Part shown: positions 9,255 to 64,000 of the stretch, in pieces | How positions within the stretch are numbered: the first letter of the stretch is position 1 | Layout: each line of letters opens with the position of its first letter | NCBI GenBank assembly: GCA_041658205.1 | Contig: JBBAAO010000002.1 | Coordinates: 55,310-119,309, forward strand | DNA: 64,000 nt | From: Bacteroidota bacterium | GTDB lineage: Bacteria > Bacteroidota > Ignavibacteria > UBA10030 > UBA8401 | Reading direction: 5' to 3' | Made by a program: the position numbers and the translations under genes | Notes under the pieces: generated by a model | What the model was told of the DNA's origin: nothing | Seen by the model: only the letters and a program-made list of their open reading frames with translations | The model's database searches: none

Positions 9255-9962
9255 TTATTTCATTGTTGCGATAATGAGTTTCTTATCCAGATTATCAAAC
9301 TCTTCGCTTCCCGGAAAGAGTAAAGGAACACTCTGAAGAAAAATGTTTGGAGAAGACTTTTTCACTAGGAGCTCTTCTTCTTCAATCTCTGCACCTTTAA
9401 ATGTAATCAAAGATGGGGCGGAAATCGAAATCTTTTCAGCTCCTATATTACTGCCGCTTTGCTTTTTAAGAAAGGGTATACCCCATTCAATAAGATTTGA
9501 AAGGCTACTTACTGAGCGTACTACGACAGCATCAAAAGAACGGAAAAAATCTGGTTTGTTTTGTACTTCTTCTGCACGTCCCCAAATGGTTTTTACATTT
9601 TTTAATTCTAATGAATCAGCCATCGATTGAACGGCAACCAATTTTTTTTGTGTTGAATCAAGCAATACAAACGAGCAATCGGGTAGCATAATTGCCAGTG
9701 GTATTCCGGGAAATCCCCCACCAGTTCCAAGATCCAGGATCTTCGATCCGGAAAAAAACTGTATTTTAAAAAGCATTGAAAGAGAAAGAGAAATATGTCC
9801 CCTCCAAATATTCTCCTCGTTTTTTCTGGAAACAAGATTGATTTTTTTATTCCAATCCAAAAGCAGATTTTTGAACAATGATAGCCGGCGGATTTGTATG
9901 TCCGTTATAAATAGATCGTTTTTCTTAAAAAGTGTATATAGCCAGAGTTCTTCGTTGTTCAT
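9255..9962 (-). CDS. rsmG: 16S rRNA (guanine527-N7)-methyltransferase
   Basis: SAM-binding 'LDLGTGGGFPGIPLAI'; sits immediately downstream of mnmG. Confidence 0.85.
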   Translation of the reverse strand: MNNEELWLYTLFKKNDLFITDIQIRRLSLFKNLLLDWNKKINLVSRKNEENIWRGHISLSLSMLFKIQFFSGSKILDLGTGGGFPGIPLAIMLPDCSFVLLDSTQKKLVAVQSMADSLELKNVKTIWGRAEEVQNKPDFFRSFDAVVVRSVSSLSNLIEWGIPFLKKQSGSNIGAEKISISAPSLITFKGAEIEEEELLVKKSSPNIFLQSVPLLFPGSEEFDNLDKKLIIATMK

Positions 9963-10010: not shown

Positions 10011-11900
10011 TTATTTTGATTCGAGTTGTTTTAAAAATATACTCAAGACAGAGACGTCGGAGTTTGTAACACCGGCGATGCGTGAAGCTTGCCCAATGGA
10101 ATGCGGACGAATGCGATTTAGCTTCTCTTTTCCCTCAGTGCTCAGTGAAGATATTTTTGTGTAATTAAAATTTTCCGGAATGAGGTACTCTTCAAATTTT
10201 GCAAAACGATGAATCTGTTCATTCTGTCTCTGAATGTATCCCGCATACTTTACGTCAATCTCTACCTGCTCTCGTACATCGTGTTTTTGCAGAAATGATT
10301 TTATTATTTGGTCGGAAATAATTTCTGTAAGATCCAACGCATTAATATTTGTTCGACGAAGCATTTTTGAAAGATTGTCATTTTCCAGAATTGGAGATTC
10401 ATTTTTCTTTTCAAGCAATGGATTTATTTTTACCGGAGAAATCGTAGTTGACTCTAGATAACGAATTGTTTCTTCAACCATTTTTTCTTTTGCATCCAGT
10501 CGCTCAATCATTTCTTTTGAGATTAATCCTAATTCATATCCATCGCGCATCAATCTCCTATCGGCGTTATCTTGTCGTAACAACAATCGATATTCTGCAC
10601 GCGAAGTAAACATTCGATACGGCTCATCAGTAGATTTGTTGATGAGATCATCAACCATCACACCAATGTATCCTTCGCTCCGTTGTATTACGAATGGATT
10701 TCTTTTTTGAATCTTCAATGCGGCATTGATACCGGCAATCAATCCTTGTCCGGCCGCTTCTTCATAACCAGACGTTCCATTAATTTGCCCTGCCAGAAAA
10801 AGTCCGGAAACGAGTTTTGTTTCCAATGTATGTCTCAATTGATGCGGAGGAAAATAATCATACTCCACAGCGTAACCAGGACGAATCATTTGTGCATTTT
10901 CCAAACCGGCGATGGATCTGATTCCTTCAAATTGAATCTCTTCCGGAAGACTTGTAGAGAATCCATTCACGTACACCACGTTCGTATCGTATCCTTCAGG
11001 TTCAAGAAAAATTTGATGCCGGTCTCGTTCAGCAAAGCGAAATACTTTATCTTCGATGGATGGACAATATCGAGGTCCGATCCCCTTAATACGGCCGGTA
11101 AACATTGGAGAACGATCAAAACCTTTTTCCAAAATCTTGTGAGTCGTGGTGTTTGTGTATGTAAGGTACATCGGTATCAAACGATTTGTAATCTTTTCAT
11201 TTTGATACGAGAAAGGAATTGGCGGATCATCACTGTTTTGTATTTCAGTTTTAGAAAGATCAATACTGTTCAGATCTATTCTTGGAGGCGTTCCAGTCTT
11301 TAATCTTCCAGAAGTAAATCCCAACGACTGCAAACTTTCGGTAACACCACGAGCAGGAGCTTCTCCAAATCTCCCTCCGCTACGATTCTTCTCCCCTGTG
11401 TGCATCAATCCATTGAGGAATGTCCCCGCACAGAGCACCAACGAACCGCAAGAAATACCGTGTCCGAGAAAAGTTCTTATTCCTTTAAGAACTCCTTCGT
11501 CAACATGGATATCTAAAACTGAATCTTCTAAGACCTCAAGATTGAATTGAGAAAGAATTCTTTTTTGAGCATCGGTAGCGTACCACTCCCTGTCATTCTG
11601 ACTACGTGGGGACCAAACGGCGGGACCTTTTGAAGTATTGAGCATCTTAAATTGGATTCCCGTAGCATCTGCTATCTTTCCCATTTCACCACCGAGCGCA
11701 TCTATCTCTCTTACGAGATGTCCCTTCGCTGTCCCCCCTATTGCAGGGTTGCACGACATTCTCCCTATAGCATTAGCTTTAAGAGAGATGAGTAGCGTGG
11801 AACAACCCATCCTTGCGGAAGCCAATGAGGCCTCAATGCCGGCATGTCCACCACCAATCACCACAATATCATAATATGTCTTTGGTCTATCAATCAACAT
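10011..11900 (-). CDS. mnmG: tRNA uridine-5-carboxymethylaminomethyl synthesis enzyme MnmG (GidA)
   Basis: 629 aa; FAD motif '[16 protein letters not shown]'; full-length MnmG architecture. Confidence 0.95.
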
Positions 11901-23555: not shown

Positions 23556-23599
23556 GTCCGCACATGTGAACGATCTTGCGACCGTTCCGACAAAACTCA

Positions 23600-59649: not shown

Positions 59650-61389
59650 TTGACAATCGAACTGCTGAAAAAAGCCTTATCCGAATTTTTTCGATTTCAA
59701 CGGAACGGAATGACGGTTGTATCATGCAATGATGCAATTTTGTATATTAATAGAGTAACTCACCGTCAGATTCATTATTGGAAATCTATCTTGCTAAAGA
59801 ACTTTGTCTCAAAATTGAAGACGTTTTTCGGAGCAAAACCGAAAACTGTCTTACCCCCTAAATCGATCCCTCAAAAAGAAACTCCAAAACAGCACCAACA
59901 TCAGCACAAAAAATTTCCGAATGAAAAACCGAGCGGCACGCATCATCCTCGCGATCAGCGAAAAAGAGAAACGCGGGAAGAATACCGTTTGCGTCATGAA
60001 AAACAGGATCGTGAACAACAGAATACGCAAGTTCTTACGGTGGCAAAAGAAAAACCAAAAGTATTCATTCCATCGGAACCGTGGGATCCTTCTGCATTTA
60101 AAGTTCCGGTGGTTGACGGCAAAACTCGATTTCAGGATTTCGATCTTCCGCAGGAAATTTTGCATGCTATTGCCGATTTGAATTTTCAATATTGCACGCA
60201 AGTACAGGAGCAGGTCCTTCCGATCTCGATGCGCGGAGACGATGTTACTGCGCAAGCGCAGACCGGAACAGGAAAGACTGCCGCATTTTTGATCACCATT
60301 TTTTCTCACATCATCCGCAATCCCATTAAAGATCAAAAGAGAGGAACACCCCGCGCATTGATTCTGGCGCCGACACGCGAATTAGTAATGCAGATCGAAA
60401 AAGATGCCCAACTGCTTGGCAAGTTTGCGCCGTGTGCAGTTCTTTCACTCGTTGGGGGAATTGATTACAACAAACAGATGCAGAATTTGAAAAACGAAAC
60501 AGTAGACATCGTGGTTGCAACGCCGGGGCGTCTCATCGATTTTAAAAAACAGAAATATGTCGATTTGGGAAAGACGGAAATTCTCATTATCGATGAAGCG
60601 GACAGAATGTTGGATATGGGATTCATACCTGCCGTGCGAAGTATTGTTTTGAGCACACCGCAAAAATCCGAACGTCAAACAATGTTCTTTACTGCAACAA
60701 TGAATTCCGAAGTAAAGCGGCTTGCAGAATCATGGACCCGTCAGGCGATTGAAGTAACAGTCACTCCGGATACGATGGCTGTCTCTGCTATTGAACAGAT
60801 CACCTACATCACCACGAAAGACGAAAAATTTCCTCTGCTGTATAATCTAATGCAGCAGAAACAATTGGAACGGGTGTTAATCTTTGTAAACAGACGCGAC
60901 GTGGGACGGGATTTAAAAGAAAAATTAGAGACGTACGGTATTCCCTGCACGCTTCTTTCAGGCGATGTCGATCAACGGCAGCGGATTAAACGTCTTGAAA
61001 ATTTCCGCGAAGGAAAAGTACGTGTGTTGGTAGCAACCGATGTTGCTTCACGCGGGCTGCATGTGGATGCGATTTCACATGTGATCAATTATAATCTTCC
61101 ACAGGATGCCGAAGAGTTTGTTCATCGTATCGGTCGTACGGGACGCGCAGGAGCTACCGGTATTGCGATCAGTTTTGCGGATGAGGAGGATTCATACGAA
61201 ATTCCAAAACTGGAAGAATATATGAAGCGGAAAATCGAATGCATCTATCCTGATGAAACATTATTGACTCCTGTAACGGAAATATTTCCTCGCAAAGAAA
61301 TGAAGCGAGAGCGACCCGCACCGCGTCGCGATGGGAATAGAGGGAAGCGAACCGGAAGTTCCCGAAGGCCGCCGAGAAAAACCTCGTAA
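59650..61389 (+). CDS. DEAD-box ATP-dependent RNA helicase with ~160-aa basic N-terminal extension
   Basis: Q-motif region, 'AQTGTGKT', 'PTRELVMQ', 'DEAD', 'HRIGRTGRAG'. Confidence 0.9.
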   Translation: MTIELLKKALSEFFRFQRNGMTVVSCNDAILYINRVTHRQIHYWKSILLKNFVSKLKTFFGAKPKTVLPPKSIPQKETPKQHQHQHKKFPNEKPSGTHHPRDQRKRETREEYRLRHEKQDREQQNTQVLTVAKEKPKVFIPSEPWDPSAFKVPVVDGKTRFQDFDLPQEILHAIADLNFQYCTQVQEQVLPISMRGDDVTAQAQTGTGKTAAFLITIFSHIIRNPIKDQKRGTPRALILAPTRELVMQIEKDAQLLGKFAPCAVLSLVGGIDYNKQMQNLKNETVDIVVATPGRLIDFKKQKYVDLGKTEILIIDEADRMLDMGFIPAVRSIVLSTPQKSERQTMFFTATMNSEVKRLAESWTRQAIEVTVTPDTMAVSAIEQITYITTKDEKFPLLYNLMQQKQLERVLIFVNRRDVGRDLKEKLETYGIPCTLLSGDVDQRQRIKRLENFREGKVRVLVATDVASRGLHVDAISHVINYNLPQDAEEFVHRIGRTGRAGATGIAISFADEEDSYEIPKLEEYMKRKIECIYPDETLLTPVTEIFPRKEMKRERPAPRRDGNRGKRTGSSRRPPRKTS

Positions 61390-61420
61390 AAATAAATATT
61401 GGCAATAAAACATGTTAACG

Positions 61421-61440
61421 CGGGCGCTAGTCCGCGTTTT
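61421..61440 (+). terminator. intrinsic terminator after the helicase gene
   Basis: acgcgg / gcgctagt / ccgcgt hairpin followed by tttt. Confidence 0.5.
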
Positions 61441-61520
61441 GCATTTTACAATGATTGAGCTTACCTCAAGAATCAATTCTTTTTCCCGGCATAAATCCAC
61501 TTCACTGAGTAGATTCCTTT

Positions 61521-61833
61521 GTCGGCACGGACGGCAGTCCGTGCCAAAGCCCTTTTTGAAAGTTTGTCGGTGCGGACGCCAGTCCGCACCAAAGCATTTT
61601 TTTTGCAAATAATAACTTATGAGAACGATCTTCCGTTAAAAAACTCGGCGAATAAGTGCGACCGTTCCGAAAAGATCTATTATTTTTGTTTCTTTGAAGT
61701 AAACTGTCGGCACGGATGCCAGTCCGCGCCCAAGACTTTTTTTGAAAGTTTGTCGGTGCGGACACAAGTCCTCACCAAAGCATTTTTTTTTGAAGTAAGC
61801 TGTGGCATGGACGCTAGTCCGTGCAAAAGATTT
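61521..61833 (+). repeat. REP-like array: five direct copies of a GC-rich palindromic unit each followed by a T-run, in two alternating sequence variants
   Basis: Units at ~61521, 61565, 61705, 61750 and 61800 share the consensus tgtcgg[ct][ag]cgga[ct]gc[ct]agtccg[ct][ag]ccaaagc + T-run. Stems are ggcacggac/gtccgtgcc and ggtgcggac/gtccgcacc. Confidence 0.7.
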
Positions 61834-61842
61834 TAGAATTGA

Positions 61843-62391
61843 TTGAATTTTATGGAACGGTCTGGCGGCAATAAAATGAAGTATAAATCGAAAAAACAAT
61901 ATCGGCTCCCGTATTATAATTACGCAAGTTCAGGATATTATTTTGTAACGTTAGTTGCCAAAAATCGCCATAAATATTTTAGTACAATAAATGATGGCAA
62001 TGTAGTTCTTACTGATATTGGGGAAATAATTAAACAATCATGGCTATACATTCCAATTAGTTCACCATTTGTAATGTTAGATGAATATGTCATAATGCCT
62101 AATCACGTACATGGCATTTTATTGATTGATAATCCGAATGAGGGTTTGGAATTGAAGGAGAAAAAATTTGAGATAAGAAAAAAATCCCTTTCGATTGTTA
62201 TGAGAACATTTAAAGCTTCAGTAACCGCTCGAGCGAGAAAAGAACATCCTGACATCAAACTATGGCAATCAAGATTTTATGACAGTATAATTCGGAATGA
62301 GACGCACCTTCAAAATGTTAGAAAATATATCGAGAACAATCCGTTACAATGGGAAGAAAATAGTAAGAATCCGATGAGTATTATGATGTGA
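61843..62391 (+). CDS. REP-associated tyrosine transposase (RAYT; IS200/IS605 Y1 HuH family)
   Basis: 'YRLPYYNYASSGYYFVTLVAKNR' N-terminal motif; HuH 'IMPNHVHGILLI'; catalytic-Tyr region 'VRKYIENNPL'. AT-rich relative to neighbours; preceded by the REP array. Confidence 0.75.
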   Translation: MNFMERSGGNKMKYKSKKQYRLPYYNYASSGYYFVTLVAKNRHKYFSTINDGNVVLTDIGEIIKQSWLYIPISSPFVMLDEYVIMPNHVHGILLIDNPNEGLELKEKKFEIRKKSLSIVMRTFKASVTARARKEHPDIKLWQSRFYDSIIRNETHLQNVRKYIENNPLQWEENSKNPMSIMM

Positions 62392-62423
62392 ATATTATTT
62401 CCGGAACAGTCTTCTACCAAAAA

Positions 62424-62447
62424 GTGTGGCGGAAGTCCGTGCTTAAG
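62424..62447 (+). repeat. degenerate REP-like copy downstream of the RAYT gene
   Basis: tgtggcggaagtccgtgcttaag resembles unit 5 (tgtggcatggacgctagtccgtgcaaaag) with an internal deletion. Confidence 0.4.
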
Positions 62448-62464
62448 TTTTATTTAAATTCATT

Positions 62465-63997
62465 TTAAAACTCCAGCTTTACTCCAATCGTTGGAAGCAT
62501 CCCCAGTCCATTAGTCAGCACTTTGCCGCTTGTTTCACGAAACTCCTCGCTGTTAGGATTCTGCTGATTATACAAATTTAAGATATCCAGAAACGCGACA
62601 ATCGCCAAGCCGCCAACAACAGGAACCGATCCAAACTGTTTTCGATAATCGATTCGAATATTCAATGTATGAAAATCGCTATACCGCAAATTGTTATTAC
62701 CGGTAATCTCTTTTGAATAACGGAAATAGATAGAATCTTGAAAAATATTCGAATGCACAACGTACGAATCCTTCGGTCGTCCTGATGCAAACTTCCATTT
62801 CATTGAAAAAGACCATTCCTTATTCAATTCGTAACCAAGCAGGATATTGGCAATGTACGGCTGACCAAAATCGGCATTGTATTCGCCGGAACCATAATTG
62901 TCGTTTCGACGGCTTTGTGCGTAAGAAAAATTCATTTGCCCGTACCATTGATCTGAGAAGCGCTTAATCAGTCCGATGTCAATCCCTTGAGCATACCCAG
63001 TCCCTCCGTTCGTGCGGAAACGTCTTGTCCGATCTGTATGGACTAGCAGCTCGCGCAGATTCTTTCGATATGCTTCTACTGTCATCTTCATTTCTTCGTT
63101 GAGATAATATGTCCACCCCACGATGTAGTGAACAGCCCGTTCATTATGAAGCGATGTATTGGATTTATCGAACATCAGCAGACTGTATTGGGGCATCTGA
63201 TAATAAATTCCGGTAGCAAGGTGTATTTTCATCTGTTCGCTAAGCTGATAACTTGCACTGAATCTCGGCGATATGGTCTGCTGGTTGTACAGTTCGCCGT
63301 ACTCGTACCGAAGGCCCGACATTACCATCAGTCGATCCCAGAATGTATGCCGATAATCCACGAAGAGCGCAGCATTCAATTTTTTTCCTGATTGCGATGT
63401 GTTGATAGAGTGCGGATCGATGATCGTAAAATATTTCAACGGATCGGGACGATAATCGTCGCCGTCAAATATGTAGGATGTATCCACCCCTTGTTGTTCA
63501 TATCGATAACGAAAATCATCCATGAATATTTCCCCGCCCGTTTGAACAGCAATATATGATGTTAATGCAACCGTGTACAACGATTTGAGACCGTACTGAT
63601 CCTGATTGCTGTTACTATTGATATAATCTTGTCGTATTGGAACAGTTTCTTTTGCCGGAACAACACCGTTGATGACATTGATATAAACACGACCGTAATG
63701 GTATTCGGTATCTGTTCGCTTCAGATAAACTGTGTTTTCCAAAAAACTTTCTGTGTTAACAAGATATCGCCAGTTTGCGCCGAGTAGGTATTTTGTTTCG
63801 TCTAACGAACCGACGAAGGTTTCAAAGTCGTTATTCTTCGCATCGAAGACATTGTCTATTGTGCGCCCGAAATGTTCTGGAGAATAGATCGCAATGATGG
63901 AAAGTTTATGCTCGGGAGAAATTTCTGTAGTTGTTTTTGCAATCACATCAGAGAACCGGATTTGTCCGAGATCTTTTAGATCGATCATTTCAAGCAT
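62465..63997 (-). CDS. outer-membrane beta-barrel protein, TonB-dependent-receptor-like (N-terminus cut by the window edge)
   Basis: C-terminal 'TIGVKLEF' (terminal Phe); alternating aromatic/Gly beta-strand pattern; ORF runs off the window end. Confidence 0.55.
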   Translation of the reverse strand: MLEMIDLKDLGQIRFSDVIAKTTTEISPEHKLSIIAIYSPEHFGRTIDNVFDAKNNDFETFVGSLDETKYLLGANWRYLVNTESFLENTVYLKRTDTEYHYGRVYINVINGVVPAKETVPIRQDYINSNSNQDQYGLKSLYTVALTSYIAVQTGGEIFMDDFRYRYEQQGVDTSYIFDGDDYRPDPLKYFTIIDPHSINTSQSGKKLNAALFVDYRHTFWDRLMVMSGLRYEYGELYNQQTISPRFSASYQLSEQMKIHLATGIYYQMPQYSLLMFDKSNTSLHNERAVHYIVGWTYYLNEEMKMTVEAYRKNLRELLVHTDRTRRFRTNGGTGYAQGIDIGLIKRFSDQWYGQMNFSYAQSRRNDNYGSGEYNADFGQPYIANILLGYELNKEWSFSMKWKFASGRPKDSYVVHSNIFQDSIYFRYSKEITGNNNLRYSDFHTLNIRIDYRKQFGSVPVVGGLAIVAFLDILNLYNQQNPNSEEFRETSGKVLTNGLGMLPTIGVKLEF

Positions 63998-64000
63998 CCG

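Follow-up and report, generated by a model that had tools for sequence, protein, structure and literature searches.

A hairpin array and a RAYT gene lie downstream of a DEAD-box helicase gene

We analyzed a 64-kb stretch of contig JBBAAO010000002.1 (positions 55,310 to 119,309; assembly GCA_041658205.1) from an uncultured Ignavibacteria-like member of the Bacteroidota, referred to below as the window, in which a gene for a tyrosine transposase associated with repetitive extragenic palindromes (REPs), known as a RAYT or TnpAREP, sits inside a cluster of REP hairpins. The DEAD-box helicase gene upstream ends at 61389, and a five-unit array starts past its terminator, with remnants of a second, right-type hairpin lying within the array and on both sides of the RAYT gene. 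Related loci from other contigs are designated by L numbers. The features of the locus, with free energies in kcal/mol, are as follows:

61417-61447, + strand: intrinsic terminator of the helicase gene, AACGCGGGC-GCTA-GTCCGCGTT then TTGCATTTT; -18.1 kcal/mol, z -4.45; called by the terminator scan
61518-61557, + strand: REP unit 1, type A; foot TGTCG, stem GGCACGGAC/GTCCGTGCC, loop GGCA, tail AAAGCCC then T5; -19.5 kcal/mol
61563-61602, + strand: REP unit 2, type B; stem GGTGCGGAC/GTCCGCACC, loop GCCA, tail AAAGCA then T8; -20.5 kcal/mol, z -4.74
61620-61677, - strand: decayed right-type REP, inverted, with its foot on the minus strand and an internal insert of about 25 nt, GAGAACGATCTTCCGTTAAAAAACTCGGCGAATAAGTGCGACCGTTCCGAAAAG; aligns with elements R2-R4 of L025
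61703-61742, + strand: REP unit 3, type A; imperfect stem GGCACGGAT/GTCCGCGCC; -14.5 kcal/mol
61749-61788, + strand: REP unit 4, type B; imperfect stem GGTGCGGAC/GTCCTCACC, T9 tail; -13.9 kcal/mol
61798-61837, + strand: REP unit 5, type A variant; canonical GTGG foot, CTGTGG-CATGGAC-GCTA-GTCCGTG-C, no long T-run; -15.4 kcal/mol, z -3.52
61857-61872, - strand: right-type REP remnant GGAACGGTCTGGCGGC, abutting the RAYT start codon; the intact L025 element ends there in ...CCGACAATAAAATG
61876-62391, + strand: RAYT (TnpAREP) gene; 171 aa, HuH residues H77/H79, W130-Q131, catalytic Y151, N155, guanine-plus-cytosine (GC) content 32%
62400-62450, + strand: remnant previously taken for a sixth repeat; right-type 5' half (GGAACAGTCTTCTACCAAAAAGTGTGGCGGA) and a REP-like 3' arm, AGTCCGTGC, at its end; -5.9 kcal/mol, z -0.35

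A repeat search recovered a 40-nt unit in five in-register direct copies spanning 61518-61837, which start at 61518, 61563, 61703, 61749, and 61798 and are therefore spaced 45, 140, 46, and 49 nt apart from start to start. All five match the 22-nt core GGYRCGGAYRCNAGTCCGYRCC on the + strand with at most 3 mismatches, compared to 0.00 matches expected by chance from 100 shuffles, and we found no other match to the core at this tolerance within the window. These results agree with the first-pass annotation, which had described five direct GC-rich palindromic units in two blocks. Each unit forms a hairpin with an 8-9 bp stem and a loop of 4 nt; the energies range from -13.9 to -20.5 kcal/mol and the z values from -2.3 to -4.7, and the stems of units 1 and 2 pair perfectly over 9 bp. 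The anatomy is the same throughout: a foot TGTCG (TGTGG in unit 5), the stem topped by CGGAC/GTCCG, a GNNA-type loop, and a tail of AAAG plus 1-3 nt, which in units 1-4 is followed by T5-T9. The foot tetranucleotide is GTCG in units 1-4 and GTGG in both unit 5 and the remnant downstream of the gene.

The alternation of two sequence variants noted earlier is also present, with ggcacgg, ggtgcgg, ggcacgg, ggtgcgg, and finally ggcatgg along the array, and types A (ggcacgg) and B (ggtgcgg) are two compensatory base pairs apart (CA..TG vs TG..CA). Since the 69-nt segments 61544-61612 (unit 1 tail through unit 2) and 61730-61798 (unit 3 tail, unit 4, and the start of unit 5) are 86% identical, part of the array was made by local duplication. 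The 140-nt gap between the two blocks holds the decayed right-type REP at 61620-61677, and all the right-type REPs around the RAYT gene are degraded. The local doublets of the window are thus broken up, with the second hairpin type left as remnants only. The label BIME-like, after bacterial interspersed mosaic elements, proved unsuitable for the array, as all five units are direct and inverted doublets occur only in relatives and as remnants here. The supposed sixth repeat does belong to the repeat system, but it aligns with the second element and forms no stable hairpin; a terminator call at 62422-62444 falls within it. Searching the window against Rfam gave nothing at the gathering threshold and nothing meaningful for 61300-62500 at E<=1, and GC skew, checked as a guide to the lagging-strand template, tracks gene orientation and was uninformative.

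The protein is a RAYT with intact catalytic residues

The RAYT gene starts at ATG 61876 and encodes 171 aa, and its orthologues begin at the same ATG. The 182-aa frame reported in the first-pass annotation starts at TTG 61843, and we rejected this start as an artefact of open reading frame (ORF) listing. The encoded protein carries both annotated motifs, PNHVHGIL around the HuH histidines and RKYIENNPL around the tyrosine, and tblastn finds a single copy of the gene in the window. Pfam Y1_Tnp matches the protein at 32.4 bits (cutoff 23), and NCBIfam REP_Tyr_transpos matches residues 16-158 at 66.7 bits (E 2e-18), while the transpos_IS200 hidden Markov model (HMM), whose cutoff is 55 bits, gives only 13.8. 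The NCBI entry (MFA5834257.1) is labelled only "MAG: transposase [Bacteroidota bacterium]", where MAG stands for metagenome-assembled genome. For a housekeeping protein encoded in the window, the closest named relatives come from Bacteroidota and Ignavibacteriales MAGs.

Structural comparisons gave the same picture. The sole match in a sequence search of the PDB was E. coli TnpAREP (4ER8), with HuH aligned and Y151 placed opposite the catalytic Y115, and 4ER8 was again the sole significant match (E 2.7e-6) for a profile of 34 homologues, across which H77, H79, Q131, Y151, and N155 are invariant. An AlphaFold2 model with a predicted local distance difference test (pLDDT) score of 86.5 has 4ER8_A as its top Foldseek match (E 5.5e-8, template modeling score ~0.6), followed by the IS200, ISDra2, and IS608 transposases. 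The HuH/Tyr transposase fold is thus present, and by HMM score, sequence, and predicted structure, the protein is nearer to RAYTs than to the TnpA proteins of the IS200/IS605 insertion sequence (IS) family.

Among the described RAYTs, subclass 2.4 is characterized by the motifs NH[IFV]H, WQ, and YIxNNP and is listed for "Cyanobacteria, Bacteroidetes and various phyla" (Quentin et al. 2018, Table 1, PMC6006769); its counterpart in the scheme of Bertels et al. 2017 (PMC5581495) is Group 4. NHVH, WQ, and YIENNP of the window RAYT match these motifs, and the homologue matches have the same taxonomic spread. In addition, the homologue P0029, from a Patescibacteria MAG (L054 870-1010), has three tandem in-frame double-foot GTAG...CTAC REP insertions between HuH and Tyr, each a long double-foot REP (GTAGGAACAGAACATTGCGC-CGCG-GCGCAATGTTCTGTTCCTAC) that is translated as AAAQCSVPTKSTFD repeats, and in-frame REP insertion between HuH and Y is the hallmark of subclass 2.4. 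Based on its motifs and the distribution of its matches, we assign the window RAYT to subclass 2.4/Group 4. The suggestion that no such system had been described in this lineage was overstated, as members of subclass 2.4/Group 4 have already been reported in Bacteroidetes, Chlorobia, and Cyanobacteria (PMC6006769, PMC5581495).

RAYT genes of relatives are flanked by the same hairpin in a REPIN layout

The same hairpin flanks the RAYT genes of L025, L010, L008, L034, L012, and L019/L028, in arrangements that vary from locus to locus. L025 has two intact inverted doublets upstream of its RAYT and two downstream, in L010, five tandem units of 83 nt precede the gene and two follow it, and in L008, the upstream copies are GTAG-footed and an inverted copy lies downstream. 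L012, which encodes a 55% identical paralogue type in a different context (miaA/prfC), carries GTAG-footed copies on both sides. When we scanned metagenomes with a 24-nt pattern, we obtained 37 loci, seven of which have a RAYT within the retrieved DNA (L019, L025, L028, L034, L037, L046, and L047). Together with the HMM, sequence, and fold matches, these hairpins at other RAYT genes bear out the REP-RAYT arrangement proposed from the window alone.

The repeated unit in the relatives is an inverted doublet, in which a left REP (GT[CA]GG-CACGGAC-GNNA-GTCCGTG-CC) and a right REP (GG[GA]ACGGTC-N4-GACCGT[CT]CC-GACA/TACA, with its foot on the other strand) are separated by a 3-45 nt spacer, with the feet on the outside. 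This layout is that of a REPIN, an inverted pair of REPs. The foot is GTAG in L008, L012, L019, L028, L034, and L044 and GTCG in L010, L025, L014, and L030. REPs without any T-run are common in relatives (L007, L025, and L030), and REPs with T-tract tails occur in L010 and L014.

The hairpin itself is under selection. Among the stem cells of 25 distinct units, 94.7% are paired and three pairs show compensatory changes, and 0 of 500 shuffles reach the observed percentage paired, number of both-sides-changed cells, or covariation score. The number and arrangement of units differ between every pair of orthologous loci, which indicates that turnover of the arrays went on after the species split. 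Two elements upstream of the gene are shared by all orthologous loci, namely the helicase terminator and a first REP at a position homologous to that of unit 1.

Two side observations concern L012. Its RAYT is followed, at 10516-10700, by one full inverted REP and 4 or 5 tandem half-REPs (CCGTCCGTTCCTACATTAAACGATT), and its RAYT type is found in the same two metagenomes as the window contig.

The RAYT gene has been inherited vertically

RAYT orthologues that are 65-83% identical occupy the same site in L008, L010, and L025, in the order S8 peptidase, DEAD helicase, RAYT. Identity to the window RAYT is 83% in L025, 66% in L008, 65% in L010, 62% in L034, 55% in L012, and 45-47% in L019/L028. We then compared the number of synonymous substitutions per site (dS) between the window and each orthologous locus for the RAYT and helicase genes:

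Window vs L025: RAYT dS 0.70, helicase dS 0.85
Window vs L010: RAYT dS 3.8, helicase dS 3.0
Window vs L008: RAYT dS 2.0, helicase dS 2.3

Since RAYT dS tracks helicase dS in each pair and the gene order is conserved, the RAYT was resident before these species split. The ratio of nonsynonymous to synonymous substitution (dN/dS) for the RAYT is 0.05-0.13, indicating purifying selection. The RAYT behaves like a domesticated gene and unlike an insertion sequence, in line with the earlier description of a domesticated IS200-like transposase. We also considered that the RAYT cassette was recently acquired or replaced, given that the RAYT is 65% identical where the helicase is 90% identical and that its GC content is 10 points low, but the agreement between its dS and the helicase dS in every species pair led us to reject this.

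One syntenic locus, L014 (Ga0172379_10000061, 9440-9670), has the S8 peptidase, helicase, and resistance-nodulation-division (RND) pump genes without a RAYT, while retaining the helicase terminator and, of the repeats, exactly one doublet of a left and a right REP. We had considered L014 as a dispersed REP copy and rejected this, as it is the syntenic locus minus the RAYT gene. By parsimony, its state is one of RAYT loss, and the remaining doublet looks like a scar of the lost system.

The region downstream of the RAYT varies. In this genome, a cluster of genes for a TonB-dependent receptor, FecR, and an extracytoplasmic function (ECF) sigma factor separates the RAYT from the RND efflux pump (window 62465-64000 and L002 10590-15130), whereas the pump follows the RAYT directly in L008 (10603) and L010 (6204). 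The downstream flank is therefore a site of rearrangement. The RAYT gene also differs in composition from its surroundings, with a GC content of 32% compared to 43.5 +/- 1.9% for 33 other window ORFs. Every orthologue shows a deficit of 8-13 points relative to its own locus despite long vertical residence, so that no amelioration is seen (compared at window 61876-62391, L025 896-1411, L010 5420-5935, L008 10082-10579, and L012 10001-10516). Selection for low expression is one candidate reason.

The repeat family is probably dispersed and low in copy number

To look for dispersed copies, we scanned for the combination of foot, stem, and GNNA loop, since a simple GGAC-N4-GTCC pattern misses the right-type REP at 23567-23592. 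One further locus was found in the window:

23558-23592, - strand: dispersed decayed doublet in the 44-nt ilvC-cimA spacer; half left REP GTCCGCAC, 4 nt, right REP GAACGATC-TTGC-GACCGTTC-CGACA

In minus-strand orientation, this right REP reads GTCG-GAACGGTC-GCAA-GATCGTTC, and it aligns with L025_R1. This doublet lies 38 kb from the array, where 0.1 such doublets are expected by chance, and its presence suggests that the family is dispersed. The corresponding spacers of L051 and L052, two relatives with a 91-93% identical CimA, lack the doublet and are unrelated in sequence; the ilvC-cimA copy is therefore lineage-specific. Doublets also occur in relatives at loci without a RAYT (L015, L030, L007, L022, L035, and L044), so that the repeat is not restricted to the array of the window.

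Group 4 RAYTs are reported to have about 14 copies of their flanking 16-mers per replicon (PMC5581495), and the few copies found here and in the contig of a relative fit this figure. When we compared TGTCGGYRCGGANNNNAGTCCGYRCC with a contig collection of other genomes, we obtained five single matches, one in the relative L007 and four in unrelated MAGs. The copy number is probably low. Tens to hundreds of genomic copies had been predicted, and with one extra locus in ~72 kb, the high end of that range, above 100 copies, is unlikely.

In L015 (1-110, one copy) and L030 (640-870, 2.5 doublets), which represent two different genomes, REPs lie just past the stop of orthologous DUF2132-like genes, which means that a REP-occupied site can be conserved across species. 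In L044 (7800-8030), L035 (6400-6650), L022 (130-240), and L007 (7880-7960), a doublet lies between the stop of a gene that carries a type IX secretion system (T9SS) sorting tail and a duplicated T9SS C-terminal sorting-domain fragment, and the flank of this site (..NEEQSAGWKEV.WNAKDVSSG..) is conserved between contigs. The site may be a preferred insertion site or may reflect REP-mediated duplication.

Discussion

We consider it likely, with good confidence, that the locus is a REPtron, that is, a single-copy, vertically inherited RAYT of the HuH-Y1 type (subclass 2.4/Group 4) inside a cluster of its cognate REP hairpins. The REP here is made up of a 5' foot, GT(C/G)G or, in several relatives, GTAG, a GC-rich stem of 8-9 bp topped by CGGAC/GTCCG, and a GNNA tetraloop. 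The mobile unit of the close relatives would be the REPIN, made of this left REP and a second hairpin, GGAACGGTC..GACCGTTCC-GACA, whose foot is on the opposite strand. If it acts like E. coli TnpAREP, the protein would attach to the hairpin folded in single-stranded DNA and read the foot, and Y151 together with the HuH-bound metal would cleave and rejoin the DNA, which would spread, amplify, and rearrange the REPs. The same analogy suggests that the RAYT probably cuts and spreads the REPs described here. In this genome, left REPs near the gene have undergone local amplification as direct repeats with T-tracts, the right REPs are decayed, and at least one further doublet has been seeded elsewhere, at 23558-23592.

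Several observations weigh against a REPtron. The foot of units 1-4 is GTCG where the canonical foot is GT[AG]G, and units 1-5 are all direct while classical REPtrons have inverted pairs. The window plus a further 8 kb (~72 kb) yielded a single extra locus, which is decayed, and the 24-nt pattern, which fits only units 1 and 2 here, has three exact matches in a relative's 2.89-Mb contig. The REP_Tyr_transpos score of 66.7 bits is below the equivalog cutoff of 80, which indicates membership at the family level and not equivalence to the seed proteins of that model. Finally, we found no activity data in the literature for any subclass 2.4 protein.

As an alternative, the RAYT may be kept for another host function, and the array may be a decaying relic that has ceased to be mobilized and acts now at most as RNA or DNA structural elements. 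The degraded right-type REPs near the gene, the mismatched stems of units 3 and 4, the very few copies elsewhere, and the figure of only ~14 flanking 16-mer copies per replicon for Group 4 (PMC5581495) all fit a relic, and the RAYT is under purifying selection regardless. We nevertheless regard a relic as distinctly improbable, given the perfect 9-bp hairpins of units 1 and 2, the array differences between every orthologous pair, which place turnover past the species split, and the lineage-specific ilvC-cimA copy. A still smaller chance, to the point of being largely refuted, is left for an autonomous IS200/IS605-type insertion sequence that moves as a unit, with unit 5 and the downstream remnant as its ends. 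Such an element would share its fold and HuH/Y motifs with IS200 TnpA, would have hairpins flanking the gene in the same orientation, as in IS608, and could account for a gene GC content 10 points under the surroundings. On the other hand, the gene holds the same chromosomal site across species whose synonymous sites are saturated, with dS congruent with that of the helicase, and it is present in one copy in 64 kb, accompanied by many hairpins instead of two. Moreover, the IS200 HMM score is far below its cutoff (13.8 vs 55 bits), there is no tnpB, and the downstream "end" does not fold.

It is also conceivable, though in our view extremely improbable, that the array is a set of tandemly duplicated helicase terminators that lies beside a transposase-like gene by coincidence. 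Units 1-4 bear T5-T9 on the sense strand of the helicase gene, a local duplication (69 nt, 86%) accounts for part of the array, and the genuine helicase terminator has a loop and 3' arm (GCTAGTCCGCG) that resemble those of the REP units, with a repeat in common with unit 5. However, the same hairpin and foot are found at RAYT genes in unrelated contexts (L012 at miaA/prfC; L019/L028/L034), the hairpin often lacks a T-run (L007, L025, and L030), and the T-runs of the array lie 5-7 nt off the main stem, with units 1-5 uncalled by the terminator scan.

The first-pass annotation placed a T-run after each unit, described every unit as looking like an intrinsic terminator, and proposed that the array may insulate the RAYT from the helicase gene; the T-runs were found after units 1-4 (T5-T9, 5-7 nt past the main stem), and unit 5 has no long T-run. 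An intrinsic terminator takes a GC-rich hairpin with a U-tract within 0-2 nt, and the scan skips units 1-5 because their T-runs begin 5-7 nt past the main stem. When units 2 and 4 are folded, an extended bulged stem puts the U-tract within 1 nt. From these sequences, a role of the units as terminators or RNA stabilizers is possible but unproven. A more speculative proposal, which we hold to be rather unlikely, is that the REP system has been partly re-purposed, such that left REPs with T-tracts were amplified one way between the helicase and the RAYT as a stack of terminators or RNA 3'-end stabilizers that shield the RAYT from read-through, while the RAYT and its repeats switched their foot from GTAG to GTCG in the course of vertical descent. 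If such a foot switch occurred, these loci would provide two naturally occurring, closely related RAYTs that differ in their guide tetranucleotide.

Compared to other members of subclass 2.4/Group 4, the system of the window is alike in its motifs, size class, taxonomic range, REPtron-like flanking REPs, and probably low repeat copy number. It differs in its GTCG foot (a sub-lineage trait here) instead of GT[AG]G, in a short 8-9 bp stem where "long" or "double foot" types are listed, and in that the window gene has no internal REP insertion. The E. coli REPtron (RayT/YafM, 4ER8, with Y and Z2 REPs) provides the best sequence and structure match, with HuH and Tyr aligned, and likewise consists of a gene in one copy with REPs of its own family around it, present or absent among relatives (here, absent in L014). 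However, E. coli TnpAREP is ~21% identical to the window protein, its foot is GTAG and not GTCG/GTGG, and it is accompanied by inverted pairs and hundreds of REPs, compared to five direct units and very few dispersed copies here.

The inverted REP pairs of L025, L030, L044, and L014, with their 3-45 nt spacers and outer feet, resemble the REPINs of Pseudomonas fluorescens SBW25 (Bertels and Rainey 2011, PMC3116915), but the arms of the doublets here have unlike stems (CACGGAC vs AACGGTC), the copy number is far lower, and the doublets of the window are broken up. The TnpA proteins of IS200/IS605 elements (IS608 and ISDra2) have the same HuH-Y1 fold and recognize, on one strand, a hairpin in sub-terminal position together with a guide tetranucleotide, whereas the window gene is immobile as a unit, is syntenic over saturated dS, scores far under the IS200 HMM cutoff, and has no TnpB. 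Enterobacterial BIMEs also consist of clustered REPs with two sequence variants alternating along the array, but their units alternate in orientation, while all five units here have the same orientation.

Since the REPtron arrangement is already well known, this case is genuine but ordinary, with minor peculiarities in its GTCG foot, its direct T-tract array, and the persistently low GC content of the gene, and it leaves existing knowledge of RAYTs unchanged. It adds a well-resolved subclass 2.4/Group 4 REPtron from an uncultured Ignavibacteria-like lineage. In addition, the orthologous loci form a small natural series in which changes in REPtrons over time and the evolution of RAYT foot specificity can be studied, ranging from intact inverted doublets (L025) through tandem arrays (L010) and a decayed direct array (the window) to gene loss (L014), with both GTAG and GTCG feet represented. 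Beyond this series, three GC-rich metagenome contigs (L024 at 800-2750, L029, and L038) carry more than 20 tandem copies, with a period of ~93 nt, of a unit that includes GTAG-CCGCGGAC-GNNA-GTCCGCGC, which shows that unrelated organisms too have long direct arrays of this type of hairpin.

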